Shown here in pieces: positions 8,028 through 64,000 of a DNA stretch of 64,000 bases; the stretch's first letter is position 1; the number at the start of each line of letters is the position of its first letter. The notes under the pieces are model-generated. The model was not told where the DNA came from. It saw only the letters and a list, made by a program, of their open reading frames with translations, and did no database searches. The stretch comes from Escherichia coli (GTDB lineage Bacteria > Pseudomonadota > Gammaproteobacteria > Enterobacterales > Enterobacteriaceae), in the NCBI RefSeq assembly GCF_044324785.1, contig NZ_CP172127.1; one strand, written 5' to 3'. A program made the position numbers and the translations under genes.

Positions 8028-10454
8028 TTAAACCTTTTCGATCTGGACAAGATTGCTGTGCGACGGGTTTCCCTTTGCCAGCGGTGAAGGGCGGTGAGAG
8101 GTCAGAATATTAATACTGCCGCCGTGATCGACCCGGTCACCAAACATATCCGCTTTAAGCCACGCACCTTGCCCGATGGCGGTAACGCCAGGCAGAATAC
8201 GCGGAGTCACTTTTGCGGCAATCAGCATTTCTCCATTATTGTTAAATACCCGCACGGTATCGCCATGACGGATACCGCGTGCCTGAGCATCAATAGGGTT
8301 GATCCACACCTCTTGTGGGCAGGCCTGCTGTAACACATCAATATTGCCGTAGCTGGAGTGGGTACGCGCTTTGTAGTGGAAGCCCGTTAACTGCAGTGGA
8401 TAGGTTTTCCGCAGGGGATCGTCCCAGCCATCAAAACCTGGGGTATACGCAGGAAGGGGATGAATAATTTCATCTTTTTTCAATTCCCAGGTATCCGCAA
8501 TCGTCGCCAGTCGTTCAGAATAAATTTCGATTTTCCCCGAAGGTGTTTTCAACGGGTTTGCCTGTGGATCTTCACGGAATGCGCGGAAAGCGACGTAGTG
8601 TTCTTCCGGGCATTTTTTCTTAAAGATCCCGGTCGTTTTCATCTCCTCGTAGTCGGGCATCTCAGGGTTACGTTCCTTCGTTTTCGCATGGAGATATTTG
8701 ATCCATTCGTGCTGACTGCGGTCTTCAGTAAAGGTTTGATAAACGTCTGGTCCTAAGCGTTTGGCGACTTCGCTCAGCATCCAGTAGATGGGTTTGCGTT
8801 CAAATTTTGCTGAGGTTGCGGGTTGGGCGAGGATCACATAGCCCATATTCCCGGCAGATTCGTGAGAGATAAGGTCTTCTTGCTCTGTTGGCATCAGGTC
8901 GGGCAACAGGATATCGCAATACTTAGCCGAGGCAGTCATGAAGTGGTCAATGCCAACAATCATCTCGCACTTGCTGTCATCCTGAAGCACCTCATGGGTG
9001 TGATTGATGTCGCCATGTTGATTGATCAATGTGTTACTGGCGTAGCACCATAAAAACTTGATGGGGACATCCAGTTTTTCTTTTCCACGAACACCATCAC
9101 GGGTCGCGGTCATTTCCGTACCGTGGTCGATGGCATCTGTCCATGTAAAGACGGAAATCTGCGTTTTAACAGGATTCTCGAGCATCGGGAACCATTCTAC
9201 CCCCAGATCCCAGCTACCTTCGCGTACACCTGAGTTGCCGCCGTTTATGCCGACGTTACCGGTGAGAACGGAAAGCATGGCAATAGCGCGGGACGTTTGC
9301 TCGCCGTTGGAGTGTCGTTGTGGCCCCCAACCCTGACAAATATAAGCAGGTTTTGCTGAACCGATCTCTCGTGCCAACTGGATAATTTTTTCTGCCGGTA
9401 TGCTGGTGATTTTTGCTGCCCATTCCGGCGTTTTAGCTATGCCGTCAGGCCCTTCGCCCAGAATATAGGCTTTATAATGCGCGTTACGTGGTGCGTTGGC
9501 GGGCAGCGTTTTTTCATCGTAACCAACACAATATTTGTCGAGAAATGGCTGATCGACCATGTTTTCAGTAATCAGTACCCAGGCAATCGCACAGGCCAGT
9601 GCGCCATCGGTGCCTGGGCGAATTGGCAGCCATTCATCTTCACGCCCGGCAGCAGTGTCGTTATAACGTGGATCGATGACGATCATGCGTGCGTTTGAAC
9701 GTTCTCGGGCTTGCTCGACGTAGTAAGTGACACCACCGCCGCTCATCCGGGTTTCTGCCGGGTTATTTCCGAACATAACGACCAGTTTCGTATTGGCGAT
9801 ATCATCCGGGCTGTTGCCATCATTGGCACCGAACATATAACTCATTGCGGCACTGATCTGTGCGGTACTGTAGCTACCATAGCGACTGAGAAAACCACCG
9901 CAAGAGTTCATCAGACGGTACGGGACGTTTGAGTTGGTGATGTTTCCGCCATCTACGCCTGTTCCGTACAGGACATGTACAGCCTCATTGCCGTAATCTT
10001 TTAGGATCCGCCGAAGATTATCACTGATGGTATCCAGGGCTTCGTCCCAACTTATCCGTTCAAATTTACCTTCACCGCGCTTGCCGACGCGCTTCATGGG
10101 ATATTTCAGCCGATCAGGATGATTCATCCGTCGGCGGATAGAGCGCCCGCGTAAACACGCCCGAACCTGATGATTACCGTAAACGTCGTCACCTGTCGTA
10201 TCAGACTCCACCCAGTACACAGTGTCATCTTTCACATGCAAACGTAACAGACAGCGGCTCCCGCAGTTAACGGTGCAGGAACTCCAGACCGCTTTCTCTT
10301 CTACCGGTGCCTCTGCCGCTCGGACCATTTGGGAAAATGGCAGAGTGAAAGCACTGCTTGCCAGCGCGAGACTGCCAAGTGCGGAGGTTTTCATCAGACT
10401 TCTACGGCTGATTTCAGCCTTCATGAGCGCCTCTGTGGTATGGAATTTCATCAT
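8028..10454 (-). CDS. ynfF: molybdopterin oxidoreductase catalytic subunit (DmsA paralog)
   Basis: 808 aa, twin-arginine signal SRRSLMK, molybdopterin oxidoreductase family; tandem paralog of ynfE. Confidence 0.9.
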   Translation of the reverse strand: MMKFHTTEALMKAEISRRSLMKTSALGSLALASSAFTLPFSQMVRAAEAPVEEKAVWSSCTVNCGSRCLLRLHVKDDTVYWVESDTTGDDVYGNHQVRACLRGRSIRRRMNHPDRLKYPMKRVGKRGEGKFERISWDEALDTISDNLRRILKDYGNEAVHVLYGTGVDGGNITNSNVPYRLMNSCGGFLSRYGSYSTAQISAAMSYMFGANDGNSPDDIANTKLVVMFGNNPAETRMSGGGVTYYVEQARERSNARMIVIDPRYNDTAAGREDEWLPIRPGTDGALACAIAWVLITENMVDQPFLDKYCVGYDEKTLPANAPRNAHYKAYILGEGPDGIAKTPEWAAKITSIPAEKIIQLAREIGSAKPAYICQGWGPQRHSNGEQTSRAIAMLSVLTGNVGINGGNSGVREGSWDLGVEWFPMLENPVKTQISVFTWTDAIDHGTEMTATRDGVRGKEKLDVPIKFLWCYASNTLINQHGDINHTHEVLQDDSKCEMIVGIDHFMTASAKYCDILLPDLMPTEQEDLISHESAGNMGYVILAQPATSAKFERKPIYWMLSEVAKRLGPDVYQTFTEDRSQHEWIKYLHAKTKERNPEMPDYEEMKTTGIFKKKCPEEHYVAFRAFREDPQANPLKTPSGKIEIYSERLATIADTWELKKDEIIHPLPAYTPGFDGWDDPLRKTYPLQLTGFHYKARTHSSYGNIDVLQQACPQEVWINPIDAQARGIRHGDTVRVFNNNGEMLIAAKVTPRILPGVTAIGQGAWLKADMFGDRVDHGGSINILTSHRPSPLAKGNPSHSNLVQIEKV

Positions 10455-10511: not shown

Positions 10512-12938
10512 TTATATTTTTTCGATCTCGACCAGATTAGTGTGCTGCGGGTTTCCCTTCGCCAGTGGTGAAGGGCGCAGAGTGGTTAGCGTATTCACAC
10601 AGCCGCCGTGGTCGATTTTATCGCCAGACATATTGGCCTCGTGCCAGGCTCCCTGACCCATAGCGCTAACTCCAGGAAGAATGCGTGGTGTCACTTTGGC
10701 TGGTAGCCGAACTTCGCCACGATGGTTAAACACCCGCACCATATCGCCGTTGGCAATCCCACGTTTCTGTGCATCTATAGGGTTGATCCACACTTCCTGA
10801 CGGCAGGCTGCCTTCAGGACATCAATGTTGCCGTAGGTCGAGTGAGTACGGGATTTGTAATGGAAACCAAACAGTTGCAGTGGGAAGGTACTACGTTCAG
10901 GGGAGTCCCAGCCTTCAAAGGTTGAGGCATAAACCGGCAGTGGGCTTATCACTTCATCTTTTTCCAGTTCCCAGGTACGGGCAATTTCCGCCAGCTTGCT
11001 GGAATAAATTTCAATCTTACCGGAAGGCGTTTTAAGTGGATTTGCCTCGGGGTCGTCACGAAATGCTTTGTAGGCGACAAAATGACCATTGGGATCTTTA
11101 CGCTTATAGATACCCATTTTTTTCAGTTCGTCGTAAGACGGTAACGCCGGATCTTTGGCAAGCATTTTGGCGTACAGATGTTGTAACCATTGTTCCTGCG
11201 TGCGACCTTCAGTGAACTTTTGATAGACGTCAGGTCCAAGACGTTTCGCGACTTCACTCAGGATCCAGTAAATCGGTTTGCGTTCGAATTTTTCGCTGGT
11301 GACAGGCTGGAGGAAAATGAGATATCCCATGTTACCGGTGTAGTCGTTAGGAATAATATCTTCCTGCTCAACGGTCATCAGGTCTGGCAGCAGAATGTCG
11401 GCATATTTTGCCGATGAGGTCATAAAGTTTTCGATGACCACAATCATTTCGCATTTCGATTCGTCCTGCAGAATTTCATGCGTTTTGTTGATGTCAGAAT
11501 GCTGATTAACCAGGGTATTTCCCGCGTAGTTCCAGATGAACTTAATGGGCACATCCAGTTTATCTTTGCCCCGGACGCCGTCGCGGATTGCCGTCATTTG
11601 CGGGCCATGATCGATAGCATCCGTCCAGCTGAAGCAGGAGATTGACGTTTTGACCGGATTATCAAGCACCGGCAGGCGTTCTATGGTAATGGTATAGGTC
11701 GATTCACGCGCGCCACTATTCCCGCCGCTGATGCCGACATTGCCCGTCAGAATAGGCAACATCGCAATAGCGCGTGCAGTCAGCTCGCCGTTTGCCTGGC
11801 GTTGCGGTCCCCAGCCCTGGCAGATATAAGCGGGTTTTGCTGTGCCAATTTCACGCGCCAGTTTGATGATACGGTCCACCGGGATACCGGTAATTTGCGA
11901 AGCCCACTGCGGCGTTTTCGCTGTTTTATCGTCACCTTCACCAAGAATATAGGCTTTATAGTGACCATTTTTTGGTGCATCTGCGGGTAAGGTTTTTTCG
12001 TCATAGCCGACGCAGTATTTATCGAGAAAAGGTTGATCAACGAGATTTTCGTTAATCAATACCCAGGCAATACCCGCAACCAGCGCGGCATCGGTGCCCG
12101 GGCGAATAGGAAGCCATTCGTCTTCACGACCGGCAGCCGTATCGGTATATCGCGGATCGATAACAATCATTTTTGCGTTCGATTTCTCGCGCGCTTTTTC
12201 AAGAAGATAAGTGATGCCACCGCCGCTCATGCGGGTTTCTGCCGGGTTGTTACCAAACATCACGACCAGCTTGCTGTTTTCAATATCCGTGGTGCTGTTG
12301 CCATCATTACTGCCGTAGGTGTAGGGCATGGCACAGGAAATTTGCGCGGTGCTGTAGGAGCCATACTGATTGAGTGAACCGCCGTAGCAGTTCATCAGGC
12401 GTTTGACCGCCGAGGCTGATGGTGAAGAGCGGGTCATATTGCCGCCAACAATCCCCGAAGAGTACTGAATATATACAGCCTCATTGCCATATTGTTCGAC
12501 GGTTTTTTTCAGGCTACTGGCGATAGTATCCAGGGCTTCATCCCAGCTAATCCGTTCGAATTTGCCTTCGCCGCGTTTGCCCACGCGTTTCATTGGGTAA
12601 TTCAAGCGATCGGGATGATTAATACGCCGACGGATGGAGCGACCGCGCAAACAGGCACGTACTTGATGATTGCCATACTCGTCGTTGCCGGTGTTGTCAG
12701 TTTCCACCCAGGTCACTTCATTATCTTTAACATGCAGACGAAGTGCACAGCGGCTACCACAGTTGACGGAACAGGCACCCCAGACCACTTTCTCGCTGGC
12801 CTGTTGTACCGCTGCCGCTGCACTGCGCAGGGTGAACGGTAAAGAAAAACCGCCTGCAGCCAGCGCCAGAGAACCTATCGCGGTAGATTTAACGAGTGTT
12901 CTGCGGCTGATGCCCACCATTTGTTCATTTTTGGACAT
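10512..12938 (-). CDS. ynfE: molybdopterin oxidoreductase catalytic subunit (putative selenate reductase, DmsA paralog)
   Basis: 808 aa, twin-arginine signal SRRTLVK, highly similar to the adjacent ynfF. Confidence 0.9.
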   Translation of the reverse strand: MSKNEQMVGISRRTLVKSTAIGSLALAAGGFSLPFTLRSAAAAVQQASEKVVWGACSVNCGSRCALRLHVKDNEVTWVETDNTGNDEYGNHQVRACLRGRSIRRRINHPDRLNYPMKRVGKRGEGKFERISWDEALDTIASSLKKTVEQYGNEAVYIQYSSGIVGGNMTRSSPSASAVKRLMNCYGGSLNQYGSYSTAQISCAMPYTYGSNDGNSTTDIENSKLVVMFGNNPAETRMSGGGITYLLEKAREKSNAKMIVIDPRYTDTAAGREDEWLPIRPGTDAALVAGIAWVLINENLVDQPFLDKYCVGYDEKTLPADAPKNGHYKAYILGEGDDKTAKTPQWASQITGIPVDRIIKLAREIGTAKPAYICQGWGPQRQANGELTARAIAMLPILTGNVGISGGNSGARESTYTITIERLPVLDNPVKTSISCFSWTDAIDHGPQMTAIRDGVRGKDKLDVPIKFIWNYAGNTLVNQHSDINKTHEILQDESKCEMIVVIENFMTSSAKYADILLPDLMTVEQEDIIPNDYTGNMGYLIFLQPVTSEKFERKPIYWILSEVAKRLGPDVYQKFTEGRTQEQWLQHLYAKMLAKDPALPSYDELKKMGIYKRKDPNGHFVAYKAFRDDPEANPLKTPSGKIEIYSSKLAEIARTWELEKDEVISPLPVYASTFEGWDSPERSTFPLQLFGFHYKSRTHSTYGNIDVLKAACRQEVWINPIDAQKRGIANGDMVRVFNHRGEVRLPAKVTPRILPGVSAMGQGAWHEANMSGDKIDHGGCVNTLTTLRPSPLAKGNPQHTNLVEIEKI

Positions 12939-42534: not shown

Positions 42535-42560
<26 letters not shown>
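42015..42560 (+). CDS. nohA: terminase small subunit (lambda Nu1 homolog)
   Basis: 181 aa MEVNKKQLADIFGASIRTIQNWQEQGMPVLRGGGKGNEVLYD, matches recalled lambda Nu1. Confidence 0.9.
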
Positions 42561-46241
<3,681 letters not shown>

Positions 46242-57344: not shown

Positions 57345-60300
57345 ATGGGTAAAGGAAGCAGTAAGGGGCATACCCCGCGCGAAGCGAAGGACAACCTGAA
57401 GTCCACGCAGTTGCTGAGTGTGATTGATGCCATCAGTGAAGGGCCGATTGAAGGTCCGGTGGATGGATTAAAAAGCGTGCTGCTGAACAGTACGCCGGTG
57501 CTGGACAGTGATGGGAATACCAACATCGCCGGTGTCACGGTGGTGTTCCGGGCTGGTGAGCAGGAGCAGACTCCGCCGGAGGGATTTGAATCCTCCGGCT
57601 CCGAGACGGTGTTGGGTACGGAAGTGAAATACGACACGCCGATCACCCGCGCCATCACGTCGGCAAACATCGACCGACTGCGCTTTACCTTCGGTGTGCA
57701 GGCACTGGTGGAAACCACCTCAAAGGGGGACCGGAATCCGTCGGAAGTTCGCCTGCTGGTTCAGATACAGCGTAATGGTGGCTGGGTGACGGAAAAAGAC
57801 ATCACCATTAAGGGCAAAACCACCTCGCAGTATCTGGCCTCGGTGGTGGTGGATAACCTGCCGCCGCGCCCGTTTAATATCCGGATGCGCAGAATGACGC
57901 CGGACAGCACCACAGACCAGCTGCAGAACAAAACGCTCTGGTCGTCATACACCGAAATCATCGATGTGAAACAGTGCTACCCGAACACGGCACTGGTCGG
58001 CGTGCAGGTGGACTCGGAACAGTTCGGCAGCCAGCAGGTGAGCCGTAATTATCATCTTCGCGGGCGCATTCTGCAGGTGCCGTCGAACTATAACCCGCAG
58101 ACGCGGCAATACAGCGGTATCTGGGACGGAACGTTTAAGCCAGCATACAGCAACAACATGGCCTGGTGTCTGTGGGATATGCTGACCCATCCGCGCTACG
58201 GCATGGGGAAGCGTCTCGGTGCGGCGGATGTGGACAAATGGGCGCTGTATGTCATCGGCCAGAATTGCGACCAGTCGGTGCCGGATGGCTTTGGTGGCAC
58301 GGAGCCGCGCATCACCTGTAATGCCTGGCTGACCACACAGCGCAAGGCGTGGGATGTTCTCAGTGATTTCTGCTCGGCGATGCGCTGTATGCCGGTATGG
58401 AACGGGCAGACGCTGACGTTCGTGCAGGACCGACCGTCGGATAAGGTGTGGACCTATAACTGCAGTAATGTGGTGATGCCGGATGATGGCGCGCCGTTCC
58501 GCTACAGCTTCAGTGCCCTGAAGGACCGTCATAATGCCGTTGAGGTGAACTGGATTGACCCGGATAACGGCTGGGAGACGGCGACAGAGCTTGTTGAAGA
58601 TACGCAGGCCATTCTCCGTTACGGTCGTAACGTCACGAAGATGGATGCCTTTGGCTGTACCAGCCGGGGGCAGGCGCACCGCGCCGGGCTGTGGTTGATT
58701 AAAACGGAACTACTGGAAACGCAGACCGTGGACTTCAGCGTGGGGGCGGAAGGGCTTCGCCATGTGCCGGGCGATGTCATTGAAATCTGCGATGATGACT
58801 ATGCGGGGATCAGCACCGGCGGGCGCGTGCTGGCGGTGAACAGCCAGACCCGGACGCTGACGCTCGACCGTGAAATCACGCTGCCATCCTCCGGTACCAC
58901 GCTGATAAGCCTGGTTGACGGAAGTGGCAATCCGGTCAGCGTGGAGGTCCAGTCCGTCACCGACGGCGTGAAGGTAAAAGTGAGCCGTGTTCCTGACGGC
59001 GTTGCCGGATACAGCGTATGGGGGCTGAAGCTGCCGACGCTGCGCCAGCGCCTGTTCCGCTGCGTGAGTATCCGTGAGAACGACGACGGCACGTATGCCA
59101 TCACCGCCGTGCAGCATGTACCGGAAAAAGAAGCTATCGTGGATAACGGGGCGCACTTTGACGGCGACCAGAGCGGCACGGTGAATGGTGTCACGCCGCC
59201 AGCAGTGCAGCACCTGACTGCCGAAGTCACCGCAGACAGCGGGGAGTATCAGGTACTGGCCCGCTGGGACACGCCGAAGGTGGTGAAGGGCGTGAGTTTC
59301 ATGCTTCGCCTGACCGTAACAGCGGATGACGGCAGTGAGCGGCTGGTCAGCACGGCCCGGACGACGGAAACCACTTACCGCTTCACACAACTGGCTCTGG
59401 GGAACTACAGGCTGACAGTCCGGGCAGTAAATGCGTGGGGGCAGCAGGGCGATCCGGCGTCGGTATCGTTCCGGATTGCCGCACCGGCAGCGCCGTCGCG
59501 GATTGAGCTGACGCCGGGCTATTTTCAGATAACCGCCACGCCGCATCTTGCGGTTTATGATCCGACGGTACAGTTTGAGTTCTGGTTCTCGGAAAAGCGG
59601 ATTGCGGATATCAGGCAGGTTGAAACCAGCGCGCGTTATCTTGGTACGGCACTGTACTGGATAGCCGCCAGTATCAATATCAAACCGGGCCATGATTATT
59701 ATTTTTACGTTCGCAGTGTGAACACCGTTGGCAAATCGGCATTCGTGGAGGCTGTCGGTCAGCCGAGTGATGATGCATCAGGCTATCTGGATTTTTTCAA
59801 AGGCGAGATAGGGAAAACCCATCTGGCTCAGGAGCTGTGGACGCAGATTGATAACGGTCAGCTTGCGCCTGACCTGACTGAAATCAGGACGTCCATAACG
59901 GATGTCAGCAATGAAATAACACAGACCGTCAATAAGAAACTGGAAGACCAGAGTGCAGCGATCCAGCAGATACAGAAGGTTCAGGTTGATACAAATAATA
60001 ACCTGAACAGCATGTGGGCAGTGAAGCTGCAGCAGATGCAGGACGGACGCCTTTATATTGCGGGTATCGGTGCCGGTATTGAGAACACCCCTGACGGCAT
60101 GCAGAGTCAGGTGCTGCTGGCGGCGGACAGGATTGCGATGATTAATCCTGCAAATGGCAACACAAAACCGATGTTTGTTGGTCAGGGTGATCAGATATTC
60201 ATGAATGACGTGTTCCTGAAACGCCTGACGGCTCCCACCATTACCAGCGGTGGAAATCCGCCGGCATTTTCCCTGACACCGGACGGAAAGCTGACCGCTA

Positions 60301-60842
60301 AAAATGCGGATATCAGTGGCAGTGTGAATGCGAACGCCGGGACGCTCAACAATGTCACGGTAAATGAAAACTGTACGATTAAGGGCATGCTGGAGGCGAC
60401 TCAGGTCAGAGGTGACTTCGTTAAAGCTGTATCCAAATCATTCCCGAAACAGGCTGGTACGTGGGGTAATACGGAAACACCAAACGGGACGGTTACAGTC
60501 ACCATCAGCGATGATCATAACTTTGACCGTCAAATCATTATTCCGCCCATTATCTTTAACGGAATAGCGTATAGCGATCCGGGAAGTGGTAATAACCCGG
60601 GAGGTACAAGATACACGGGTTATGGTTTTGAAGTTCGCAAAAACGGCGTATTAATCGCATCCAGAGAAACTAAAGGGGCCATTCCCGGTAGTTACAGTGC
60701 AGTTATTGATATGCCGAGTGGCAGGGGAAGCGTCACTCTGGAGTTTAAGATTTTCCAGAAAGGCAATCAGGGGGCAGGCAATATCACCGACTGTACGGTG
60801 ATTGTGACCAAAAAAGCCGCTTCCGGCATCAGTATTCGTTGA
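57345..60842 (+). CDS. J: central tail fiber / host specificity protein gpJ
   Basis: 1165 aa; N-terminal about 800 aa match recalled lambda J, C-terminal region differs. Confidence 0.9.
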
Positions 60843-60864
60843 AATATTTATAACCCCAATAAAG

Positions 60865-60888
60865 GGCGTCAGGAATGACGCCTTTTTT
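60865..60888 (+). terminator. intrinsic terminator after J
   Basis: ggcgtca-ggaa-tgacgcc hairpin followed by T6. Confidence 0.6.
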
Positions 60889-60912
60889 ATTGCAGAAAAG
60901 CGAGAGGTAATT

Positions 60913-61512
60913 ATGCGTAAAGTTTGTGCAGCAATTTTGTCCGCAGCCATTTGTCTGGCCGTATCCGGTGCGCCTGCATGGGCGTCTGAACATCAGTCCA
61001 CGCTGAGCGCGGGGTATCTTCATGCCTCGACGAACGTCCCCGGCAGTGATGATCTGAACGGGATTAACGTGAAATACCGTTATGAGTTTACGGACACACT
61101 GGGGCTGGTGACGTCATTCAGCTATGCAGGAGACAAGAATCGCCAGCTGACCCGTTACAGCGATACCCGCTGGCATGAAGATTCCGTTCGTAACCGCTGG
61201 TTCAGCGTAATGGCGGGGCCGTCTGTGCGCGTGAATGAATGGTTCAGCGCGTATGCGATGGCGGGTGTGGCTTACAGCCGTGTGTCGACTTTCTCCGGGG
61301 ATTATCTTCGCGTAACTGACAACAAGGGGAAAAAGCACGATGTGCTGACCGGAAGTGATGACGGTCGCCACAGCAACACGTCTCTGGCGTGGGGGGCTGG
61401 CGTGCAGTTTAACCCGACCGAATCCGTGGCCATTGATATTGCTTATGAAGGCTCCGGCAGTGGTGACTGGCGCACTGACGGTTTCATCGTGGGTGTCGGT
61501 TATAAATTCTGA
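60913..61512 (+). CDS. lom: Lom-like outer membrane beta-barrel protein (Ail/OmpX family)
   Basis: 199 aa with signal peptide and C-terminal aromatic GVGYKF. Confidence 0.85.
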   Translation: MRKVCAAILSAAICLAVSGAPAWASEHQSTLSAGYLHASTNVPGSDDLNGINVKYRYEFTDTLGLVTSFSYAGDKNRQLTRYSDTRWHEDSVRNRWFSVMAGPSVRVNEWFSAYAMAGVAYSRVSTFSGDYLRVTDNKGKKHDVLTGSDDGRHSNTSLAWGAGVQFNPTESVAIDIAYEGSGSGDWRTDGFIVGVGYKF

Positions 61513-61576
61513 TTAGCCAGGTAACACAGTGTTATGACAGCCCGCCGGTTCAGGTGGGCTTTTTTGTGGGGTGAAT

Positions 61577-64000
61577 ATGGCAGTAAAGATTTCAGGTGTA
61601 CTGAAAGACGGCACAGGAAAACCGGTACAGAACTGCACAATCCAGCTGAAAGCAAAACGTAACAGCACCACGGTGGTGGTAAACACGCTGGCCTCAGAAA
61701 ATCCGGATGAAGCCGGGCGTTACAGCATGGACGTTGAGTACGGGCAGTACAGCGTTATTCTGTTGGTGGAGGGATTCCCGCCGTCACATGCCGGGACCAT
61801 CACCGTGTATGAAGATTCCCGACCCGGTACGCTGAATGATTTTCTCGGTGCCATGACGGAGGATGATGCCCGTCCTGAGGCACTGCGCCGTTTTGAACTG
61901 ATGGTGGAAGAGGTGGCGCGTAACGCGTCCGCGGTGGCACAGAACACGGCAGCCGCGAAGAAGTCAGCCAGCGATGCCGGCACATCAGCACGTGAGGCGG
62001 CAACCCATGCGACTGATGCTGCAGGCTCAGCACGCGCAGCCAGCACGTCAGCCGGACAGGCCGCGTCGTCGGCTCAGTCAGCATCTTCCAGCGCAGGAAC
62101 GGCATCAACAAAGGCCAGTGAAGCATCGAAAAGTGCTGCTGCTGCAGAGTCCTCAAAAAGCGCGGCAGCTACCAGTGCCGCTGCGGCGAAAACGTCAGAA
62201 ACGAATGCGGCAGCGTCACAACAATCAGCAGCCACTTCTGCATCCGCCGCGACCACGAAGGCGTCAGAAGCTGCCACCTCAGCCCGGGATGCGGCGGCCT
62301 CAAAAGAGGCGGCAAAATCATCAGAAACGAGCGCAGCCTCGAGCGCCAGTAGTGCAGCCTCCTCGGCAACAGCGGCAGGAAATTCCGCGAAGGCGGCAAA
62401 AACGTCCGAGACGAACGCTAAGTCTTCTGAGACGGCAGCAGCACAGAGTGCCTCCGCAGCAGCAGACTCAAAAACAGCGGCTGCCTCATCTGCCAGCGCC
62501 GCGTCAACAAATGCCGGGCAGGCCTCAGCCAGTGCCACCGCCGCCGGAAAATCGGCAGAAAGTGCTGCATCGTCCGCTTCAACAGCCACAACGAAGGCTG
62601 GCGAAGCCGCTGTACAGGCCAGCGCAGCAGCGAGGTCTGCTTCCGCAGCGAAGACATCCGAGACGAACGCGAAAGCGTCGGAAACCAGCGCAGAATCCTC
62701 AAAAACGGCTGCCGCATCGTCCGCCAGTTCGGCGGCGTCATCGGCATCATCTGCGTCTGCTTCAAAAGATGAGGCGACCAGACAAGCGTCCGCAGCGAAG
62801 GGCAGCGCCACGACAGCATCCACGAAGGCGACAGAGGCAGCTGGCAGTGCGACGGCGGCAGCACAGAGCAAAAGTACGGCGGAATCCGCGGCAACGCGCG
62901 CCGAGACAGCGGCAAAACGGGCAGAGGATATTGCATCCGCCGTGGCGCTTGAGGATGCGAGCACGACGAAAAAGGGGATAGTACAGCTCAGCAGTGCGAC
63001 CAACAGCACTTCCGAGTCACAGGCGGCAACGCCAAAAGCCGTTAAGGCCGCGTATGACCTGGCTAACGGGAAATACACCGCACAGGACGCTACGACAGCA
63101 CAAAAAGGAATTGTCCAGCTCAGTAGTGCAACCAACAGCACATCTGAAACGCTTGCTGCGACACCGAAAGCAGTGAAAGCAGCTAATGACAATGCGAATG
63201 GTCGGGTACCTTCTGCCCGTAAGGTGAATGGTAAGGCGCTTTCAGCGGATATAACACTGACGCCGAAAGATATTGGTACGCTTAACTCAACAACAATGTC
63301 ATTCAGCGGTGGTACTGGTTGGTTCAAATTAGCAACGGTAACCATGCCACAGGCGAGTTCTGTTGTTTCAATTACGTTGATTGGTGGCGCTGGATTTAAC
63401 GTGGGGTCACCTCAACAGGCAGGTATATCTGAACTTGTTTTACGTGCAGGTAATGGTAATCCGAAGGGGATTACTGGTGCTTTATGGCAGCGCACATCGA
63501 CAGGGTTTACAAATTTTGCCTGGGTCAATACATCTGGTGATACTTACGATATTTACGTTGCAATCGGAAATTATGCGACTGGTGTAAATATTCAATGGGA
63601 TTATACCAGTAATGCCAGCGTGACGATTCATACGTCACCAGCATATTCTGCTAATAAGCCGGAAGGGTTAACGGACGGTACAGTTTATTCACTCTATACG
63701 CCATCAGAGCAGTTTTATCCGCCTGGCGCACCAATCCCGTGGCCATCAGATACCGTTCCGTCTGGCTATGCCCTGATGCAGGGGCAGACTTTTGACAAAT
63801 CTGCATACCCGAAACTTGCAGCCGCTTATCCGTCAGGCGTGATCCCTGATATGCGTGGCTGGACGATTAAGGGCAAACCTGCCAGTGGTCGGGCCGTATT
63901 GTCTCAGGAACAGGACGGCATTAAATCGCATACCCACAGCGCCAGCGCATCCAGTACGGATTTGGGGACGAAAACCACATCGTCGTTTGATTACGGCACT
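61577..64000 (+). CDS. stf: side tail fiber protein, 5-prime partial (continues past window end)
   Basis: Starts [26 protein letters not shown], long Ala/Ser-rich repeat region, then tail-fiber repeat motifs; no stop before 64000. Confidence 0.8.

Follow-up and report, generated by a model that had tools for sequence, protein, structure and literature searches.

Long open reading frames inside a prophage side tail fibre gene as a probable by-product of its Ala/Ser/Thr-rich rod, with a PF03406 repeat at a likely exchange junction

When three long reading frames are open over the same stretch of phage DNA, how many of them are genes, what keeps the others free of stops and, if that stretch ends in a repeat, what does the repeat do? 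These questions are raised by a side tail fibre gene (stf) at the end of a 64,000-nucleotide piece of Escherichia coli DNA (the window, i.e. the whole stretch that was analysed), in which an Arg/Gln/Pro-rich ORF of 335 codons on the same strand and an ORF of 423 codons on the opposite strand overlap the Ala/Ser/Thr-rich part of stf. We consider it very probable that the composition of the Stf rod opens both of these shadow frames, that neither is a gene and that the PF03406 repeat following the rod marks a junction at which phages exchange distal modules. The observations brought to bear on this comprise the ORFs, composition, heptad register, shuffle statistics, allele comparison and domain matches. 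All elements of the explanation have already been described, namely the gene family, the coiled-coil rod, the repeat family and the type of artefact, for which there is a precedent in lambda.

The ATG at 61577 opens the stf frame, and frame translation gives 808 codons with no stop by position 64000 (Table 1). In Pfam, residues 1-134 of the product match the prophage tail fibre N-terminal family PF08400 (E 9.7e-72, 239.7 bits against a cut-off of 26.6) and residues 717-764 correspond to a Collar domain. Solved structures are matched along the protein as well: 9e7m (chain 9e7m_Ta, 'Tail fiber protein') by residues 1-94 (E 1e-51), the Mu tail fibre S structure 5yvq by residues 492-552 or thereabouts (E 4e-8) and the T4 gp37 tip 2xgf by residues 700-808 (E 6e-49), the window ending within the gene. 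The order J, lom, stf in the window is the order found in lambda and in annotated relatives. Taken together, the PF08400 domain, two PF03406 repeats, the Collar domain and the place after J and lom identify the gene as a lambda-type side tail fibre gene. Matches occur in 5,130 E. coli genomes. Chromosomes of this species carry the same gene at up to 99.5% identity, with the annotation of a prophage tail fibre and with tfaQ, pinQ, ydfK and ydfJ after it; the prophage is therefore lambdoid and at the Qin position. Relatives at 97-99.5% identity possess the C-terminus as well as a tail fibre assembly gene (tfa). A terminator-like hairpin of eight pairs (six of them G-C), followed by TTTTTTGTGG, lies at window positions 61539-61570 (+), after the lom stop (61512) and ahead of the stf ATG; unless late antitermination reads through it, expression of lom and stf may be attenuated or kept apart by it.

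Table 1. Features of the stf locus discussed in the text, with their positions in the window
Feature	Position	Strand	Remarks
J-like ORF	57345..60842		upstream of stf; from the ORF list
lom-like ORF, 199 aa	60913..61512		between the J-like ORF and stf; from the ORF list
Side tail fibre gene (stf-like), 5' 808 codons	61577..64000	+	3' end beyond the window
Ala/Ser/Thr-rich heptad-repeat rod	61877..62971	+	Stf residues ~101-465; predicted trimeric alpha-helical coiled coil
Tail-fibre repeat copy 1 (PF03406)	62972..63103	+	33 residues plus an 11-residue linker; at Stf residue 466
Tail-fibre repeat copy 2 (PF03406)	63104..63202	+	33 residues; at Stf residue 510
335-aa Arg/Gln/Pro-rich ORF	61974..62981	+	frame +1 relative to stf; read here as a spurious shadow ORF
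423-aa Ala/Val/Asp/Phe-rich ORF	62074..63345	-	third codon positions coincide with those of stf; read here as a spurious shadow ORF
108-aa ORF	61720..62046	-	in the antisense frame of the 423-aa ORF, from which the stop at 62076-62074 separates it

What lies between the N-terminal domain and the repeats is essential for the rest of the argument. An earlier interpretation made from the letters alone, hereafter the sequence-only reading, had described several hundred Ala/Ser/Thr-rich residues of low complexity; the residues are indeed there, but low complexity is a misnomer for what looks like a strict heptad coiled coil with an unbroken register. Stf residues 115-460 consist of 39% A, 24% S, 11% T, 7% K and 6% E, with no C, F, M, P, W or Y at all, and a single register, x-S-A-x-x-A-A, runs from residue 101 through ~52 heptads without a break, with Ala at heptad positions 3, 6 and 7 throughout. 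The periodicity power of Ala reaches 41 at 3.5 residues and 19 at 7.0, where the 99th percentile of shuffles is ~10, and DNA repeat families in the rod have spacings that are mostly multiples of 21 nt. Across related alleles the first PF03406 unit begins at residue 466, 452, 361 or 354, and these differences are all multiples of 7. An AF2 model, a single-sequence, single-chain monomer of low overall confidence (mean pLDDT 59, ~55-88 in the rod) that was read for secondary structure alone, has helix at residues 98-388 and 397-461. A homologous Ala/Ser segment, the 'PCoil', has been found by CD, SEC-MALLS and EM to be a trimeric coiled coil whose length varies by multiples of seven (Ghosh et al., 2012; PMC3368898), and residues 102-393 of Ur-lambda gpStf have been assigned to a proximal coiled coil with a hinge after it, the rod being visible in cryo-ET (Yu et al., 2025; PMC12617516). 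By analogy with these homologues, we infer that the rod in the window is a trimeric coiled coil.

Both overlapping ORFs were recovered where the sequence-only reading had placed them, and the simplest question about them is how long an open frame the Stf protein would be expected to produce. This was approached by permuting synonymous codons so that the Stf protein was kept, five alternative frames being tested. In the stop map of each frame, the +1 frame is stop-free from 61902 to 62978, and this run of 359 codons compares with a median of 357 in the shuffles; the length of the 335-aa ORF is thus fully expected from the Stf protein sequence. The antisense stop-free run is 445 codons long against 253 +/- 88 in the shuffles, of which 2.9% reach 445 (p = 0.029). 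It is longer than typical, but with five alternative frames under test such an excess is unremarkable. Choosing synonymous codons uniformly gives the same result as the shuffles for both frames, and the cause of their openness is therefore amino-acid composition and not, as had been proposed, a GC-rich codon bias.

How composition would do this can be spelled out at the level of codons. A stop in the +1 frame would require an xTA or xTG codon (Leu, Ile, Val or Met) followed by A or G, which is essentially absent from the rod, while the antisense frame would be stopped only where a Tyr codon is preceded by one with T or C as its last base, or a Gln or His codon by one with T as its last base. 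Made almost only of Ala, Ser, Thr, Lys, Glu and Gly, the rod would leave both frames open by composition. For the antisense frame the account is partial, as composition covers ~250 open codons and falls short of the complete run. Stops can be created there at no more than 15 dicodons in 445, and the probability that all are open is 0.02; the remainder is attributed to chance because sister alleles carry stops at the same positions. The stop at 62076-62074 corresponds to the stf dicodon GCT CAG (codons 166-167) and is present in 50 of the 50 colinear alleles compared there.

The fate of the two frames in related alleles was followed in 84 stf loci chosen by N-terminal similarity (80 from IMG/VR and four annotated records), which are closely related (median 95% nt identity) and not independent samples, so that counts drawn from them are descriptive. 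An antisense run of at least 423 codons is kept in only three of these 84 loci, most being cut at stf codon 430 or 493; the stops arise at stf codons 430, 470, 493, 503 and 514, by changes that are mostly silent in stf. Thus, GCA CAG to GCT CAG (Ala-Gln, codon 429) and GCG TAT to GCC TAT (Ala-Tyr, codon 492) leave Stf unchanged and cut the antisense frame, each in 22 of 50 colinear alleles. What stays open in nearly all long-rod alleles is a core of 262 codons (stf codons 168-429), a length that equals the shuffle expectation. The +1 frame is broken at varied places among related alleles.

Signs of selection are seen for one frame of the three. Polymorphism in the rod falls on stf third positions at 218 of 344 sites, and stf is therefore the frame under selection. 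As many as 245 of 247 stf-silent polymorphisms alter the +1 product, and the antisense protein is changed by 29 of 92 stf-silent transversions (31.5%), compared with 34.3% in the absence of constraint (p = 0.66). A genuine overlapping gene would be expected to conserve its reading frame and to be under purifying selection of its own, and neither is the case here. Nor does either ORF match a Pfam family, and simple consensus scans found no sigma-70-like promoter site on either strand in 60800-64000 and no Shine-Dalgarno-like sequence ahead of either ATG. An exact-sequence look-up in a collection of 15 billion proteins, which returned no entry for either ORF product or for lambda orf206b, is uninformative.

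Codon usage, one of the checks that the sequence-only reading had put forward, gives a divided answer. It rejects the 335-aa ORF, since reference genes reach +0.26 +/- 0.08 bits per codon and the frame of this ORF -0.22, but it does not reject the antisense ORF and is not decisive there: over the same DNA (62078-62977), the antisense frame scores +0.262 bits per codon and stf itself +0.153. This gene-like score arises because GCN codons are read as GCN on the other strand. The comparison of alleles, also suggested at the outset, is what separates the two frames, since stf-silent changes split the antisense frame in sister alleles. With no family match, an antisense frame broken in about half of the near-identical alleles and +1 residues that are unconstrained, the initial opinion that the ORFs are almost certainly not genes is borne out, and on this comparative evidence neither the 335-aa nor the 423-aa ORF would be a gene.

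Immediately after the rod comes a tandem repeat of a different nature. The whole protein matches PF03406 (Phage_fiber_2) with an E-value of 9.3e-38 and 128 bits against a cut-off of 22, in two stretches. The tandem duplication of a tail-fibre unit that had been reported is thus real and consists of two PF03406 copies, but its period is 132 bp (44 codons) rather than roughly 100 bp, the conserved part being ~84-99 bp. Copies 1 and 2 share 25 of 28 residues, whereas their third codon positions are saturated, matching at only eight of 28. DNA identity between them is 72.6% in the 84 conserved nt and 57.6% for the full 132 nt, and the longest exact run between them, read off the alignment, is ~11 nt. 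Both Tandem Repeats Finder and a seed-based repeat finder missed the 132-bp repeat because DNA identity over the unit is only 57.6%; it was brought out by translation, Pfam and direct comparison. This pattern indicates that the two copies in the window stem from an old duplication maintained by selection at the protein level. Eleven nucleotides of identity are too short for efficient RecA-dependent exchange between copies.

The number of copies nevertheless differs among alleles, and so does what follows them. Counting the window together with 71 complete alleles, PF03406 is absent from 18, present once in 32, twice in 16 and three times in six. One 99.5%-identical allele (L003, E. coli 07-4299, 4001-6961) has a third unit that is a duplicate of unit 1 at 95.5% nt identity. 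Several chromosomal alleles at 99.4-99.5% identity span 132 bp more than the window (2556 versus 2424 nt), the source of the extra 132 bp having been determined in L003, the one allele examined. Where identity is 96.7-97.4%, the alleles have two units and the match to them is uninterrupted.

When the 84 loci are compared with the window by BLAST, homology running from the stf ATG stops at residue 494 in 32 of them and at residues 535-542 in another 18, so that 50 of 84 breakpoints fall just after a repeat copy, be it copy 1 or copy 2; it mostly resumes at about residue 717, with the Collar domain. Such a position of the breakpoints argues that the PF03406 unit marks a junction at which the distal receptor-binding module would be exchanged between phages. 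In 17 other loci the homology ends within the rod, at residue 281, and the alleles concerned lack PF03406 and have another distal part; the vicinity of this residue is best read as a second recombination junction, within the rod. Recombination as the cause of these mosaic junctions is what we infer from their pattern. An allele class of ~1250 aa (L071, L056, L070 and similar, from IMG/VR) has the N-terminus and the first ~26 heptads in common with the window; from about residue 282 onward the rod is a different one (KSETNAK, NSESAAK), and PF03406 is missing from the distal part. The recombination hotspot suspected at the repeat can thus be retained in modified form: copy number ranges from 0 to 3 and 50 of 84 breakpoints lie after a copy, but the DNA identity of the window copies is not the means.

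Three other readings of these data deserve to be weighed. That the Ala/Ser/Thr stretch is an intrinsically disordered, low-complexity linker, with no structured rod and a length that changes by replication slippage, would be consistent with its extreme composition (74% A+S+T), with the variation in rod length among alleles and with the moderate confidence of the AF2 monomer in the stretch. It seems difficult to reconcile, however, with a heptad register continuous over ~365 residues and its very strong 3.5-/7-residue periodicity, with length differences that are all multiples of 7 residues and never of 1 to 3, with a continuous AF2 helix and with homologues that are helical trimers (PMC3368898) or appear as a rod in cryo-ET (PMC12617516); in addition, Tandem Repeats Finder reports no array in the rod except for one 19-nt, two-copy match. 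Disorder is thus regarded as very improbable. A slippage-prone simple repeat had been considered and was rejected, given the missing array and indels that all come in multiples of 7 residues. Still less credible is the notion that the 423-aa antisense ORF is translated, from an antisense transcript within stf, and is thus a true overlapping gene. In 97% of synonymous shuffles the run is shorter, codon usage scores the ORF like a gene, nearly all long-rod alleles leave its core of ~262 codons open and a homologous ORF is carried as a CDS in both the GenBank and RefSeq records of lambda (lambdap90; PMC10695390). Yet the codon score follows automatically from GCN/GCN symmetry, the open core is no longer than the shuffles predict, and about half of the ~95%-identical alleles have stf-silent polymorphisms that interrupt the frame as a whole. 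Its own amino acids are unconstrained, and it comes without a Pfam family, a promoter-like site or a Shine-Dalgarno-like sequence. Knock-down of lambda orf206b had no plaque phenotype, which would also speak against a gene, but neither had the knock-down of stf (PMC10695390). That the frame, here and in lambda orf206b, might be translated in some alleles and yield a functional Ala/Val/Asp/Phe-rich protein is given the same minimal credence; if true, a classic phage locus would contain an overlapping gene that had gone unrecognised.

The remaining alternative concerns the repeat, whose two units could be a recent tandem DNA duplication, with a mutual identity that would make the window gene a hotspot of unequal homologous recombination. 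The copies are adjacent, in phase and near-identical as proteins (25 of 28 residues), and the extra copy of unit 1 in L003 implies that recent duplication does occur at this locus. The pair in the window is another matter, because recent copies would not be expected to be only 72.6% identical in DNA, to agree at eight of 28 third positions and to have ~11 nt as their longest exact run. Although less remote than the two readings above, a recent origin of this pair is therefore unlikely.

The preferred explanation is thus that of a lambdoid prophage stf whose product starts with an N-terminal collar domain, which attaches the fibre to the tail, and would continue as a long trimeric alpha-helical coiled-coil rod of ~52 x-Ser-Ala-x-x-Ala-Ala heptads, with small Ala residues in its core. 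Two PF03406 copies come next, and the part beyond them, akin to the T4 gp37 tip, would bind the receptor. The PF03406 unit is a repeat at the level of the protein, kept by selection, the copy number of which shifts between alleles.

The practical interest of this locus lies mainly in annotation hygiene, Ala/Ser-rich coiled-coil fibre rods being able to yield very long ORFs in two other frames. The antisense frame has its third codon positions where stf has them, which leaves codon-usage and dN/dS-type tests unable to reject it, while silent polymorphisms that create stops among alleles can do so. Gene finders should be used with caution on Ala-rich coiled-coil genes, since the antisense frame outscores the true stf frame here. 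The locus also illustrates variation in fibre length by whole heptads and the use of a conserved repeat as a module-swap junction, both of which are already in the literature. Elsewhere in the window, a 327-aa ORF (58710..59693, -) lies antisense to J (57345..60842) and a 255-aa ORF (42595..43362, -) antisense to a 641-aa ORF (42535..44460); these two are probably shadow ORFs of the same kind as those in the stf rod. In the chromosomal part of the window, two ORFs of 808 aa each (8028..10454 and 10512..12938, -) are adjacent on the same strand, which suggests tandem paralogues.

The closest precedent for the antisense ORF is found in lambda itself, where the GenBank record annotates orf206b (AAA96556.1; lambdap90) antisense inside orf-401/stf. 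Strand and frame relative to stf are those of the 423-aa ORF in the window, and over 118 aa orf206b matches the C-terminal part of the latter at 82% identity, but it is 206 aa long rather than 423. Judging from the alleles, length in both cases would be set only by where stf-silent third-position variants create stops. The RefSeq hypothetical protein lambdap90 was non-essential in a CRISPRi screen (PMC10695390). We regard orf206b as the same annotation artefact as the antisense ORF in the window, one that has stood in the lambda record for decades.

The fibre, too, has well-studied relatives. Stf of lambda (Ur-lambda) and its E. coli prophage homologues StfQ/StfR have the J, lom, stf gene order in common with the window and are likewise built from a PF08400 collar domain, an Ala/Ser heptad rod that ends with PF03406 and a distal part of the Collar/gp37 type. 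Lambda DNA is ~86% identical to the window stf over the 49% of the query that is shared. The two differ in that the rod in the window is longer by 105 residues (15 heptads), the first repeat being at residue 466 rather than 361, in that window Stf has two copies of PF03406 and lambda Stf one, and in the segment from the repeat to the Collar domain (residues ~543-716), where window Stf is unlike lambda Stf. The PF03406 repeat is also found in the Mu tail fibre S, and apart from their number the units in window Stf depart from this family in nothing essential. A more distant comparison is offered by the EHEC prophage collagen-like fibres EPclA/B (PMC3368898), whose Ala/Ser-rich PCoil follows directly after PF08400, as the rod does in window Stf, with the heptad pattern Ala-x-x-Ala/Ser-x-x-Ser. 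No collagen-like Gly-X-Y tract is present in the 808 translated residues of window Stf. In EPclA/B the segment spans about residues 101-245 and a collagen triple helix comes next, whereas the rod in the window extends over ~365 residues and is continued by PF03406 repeats and a gp37-like tip.
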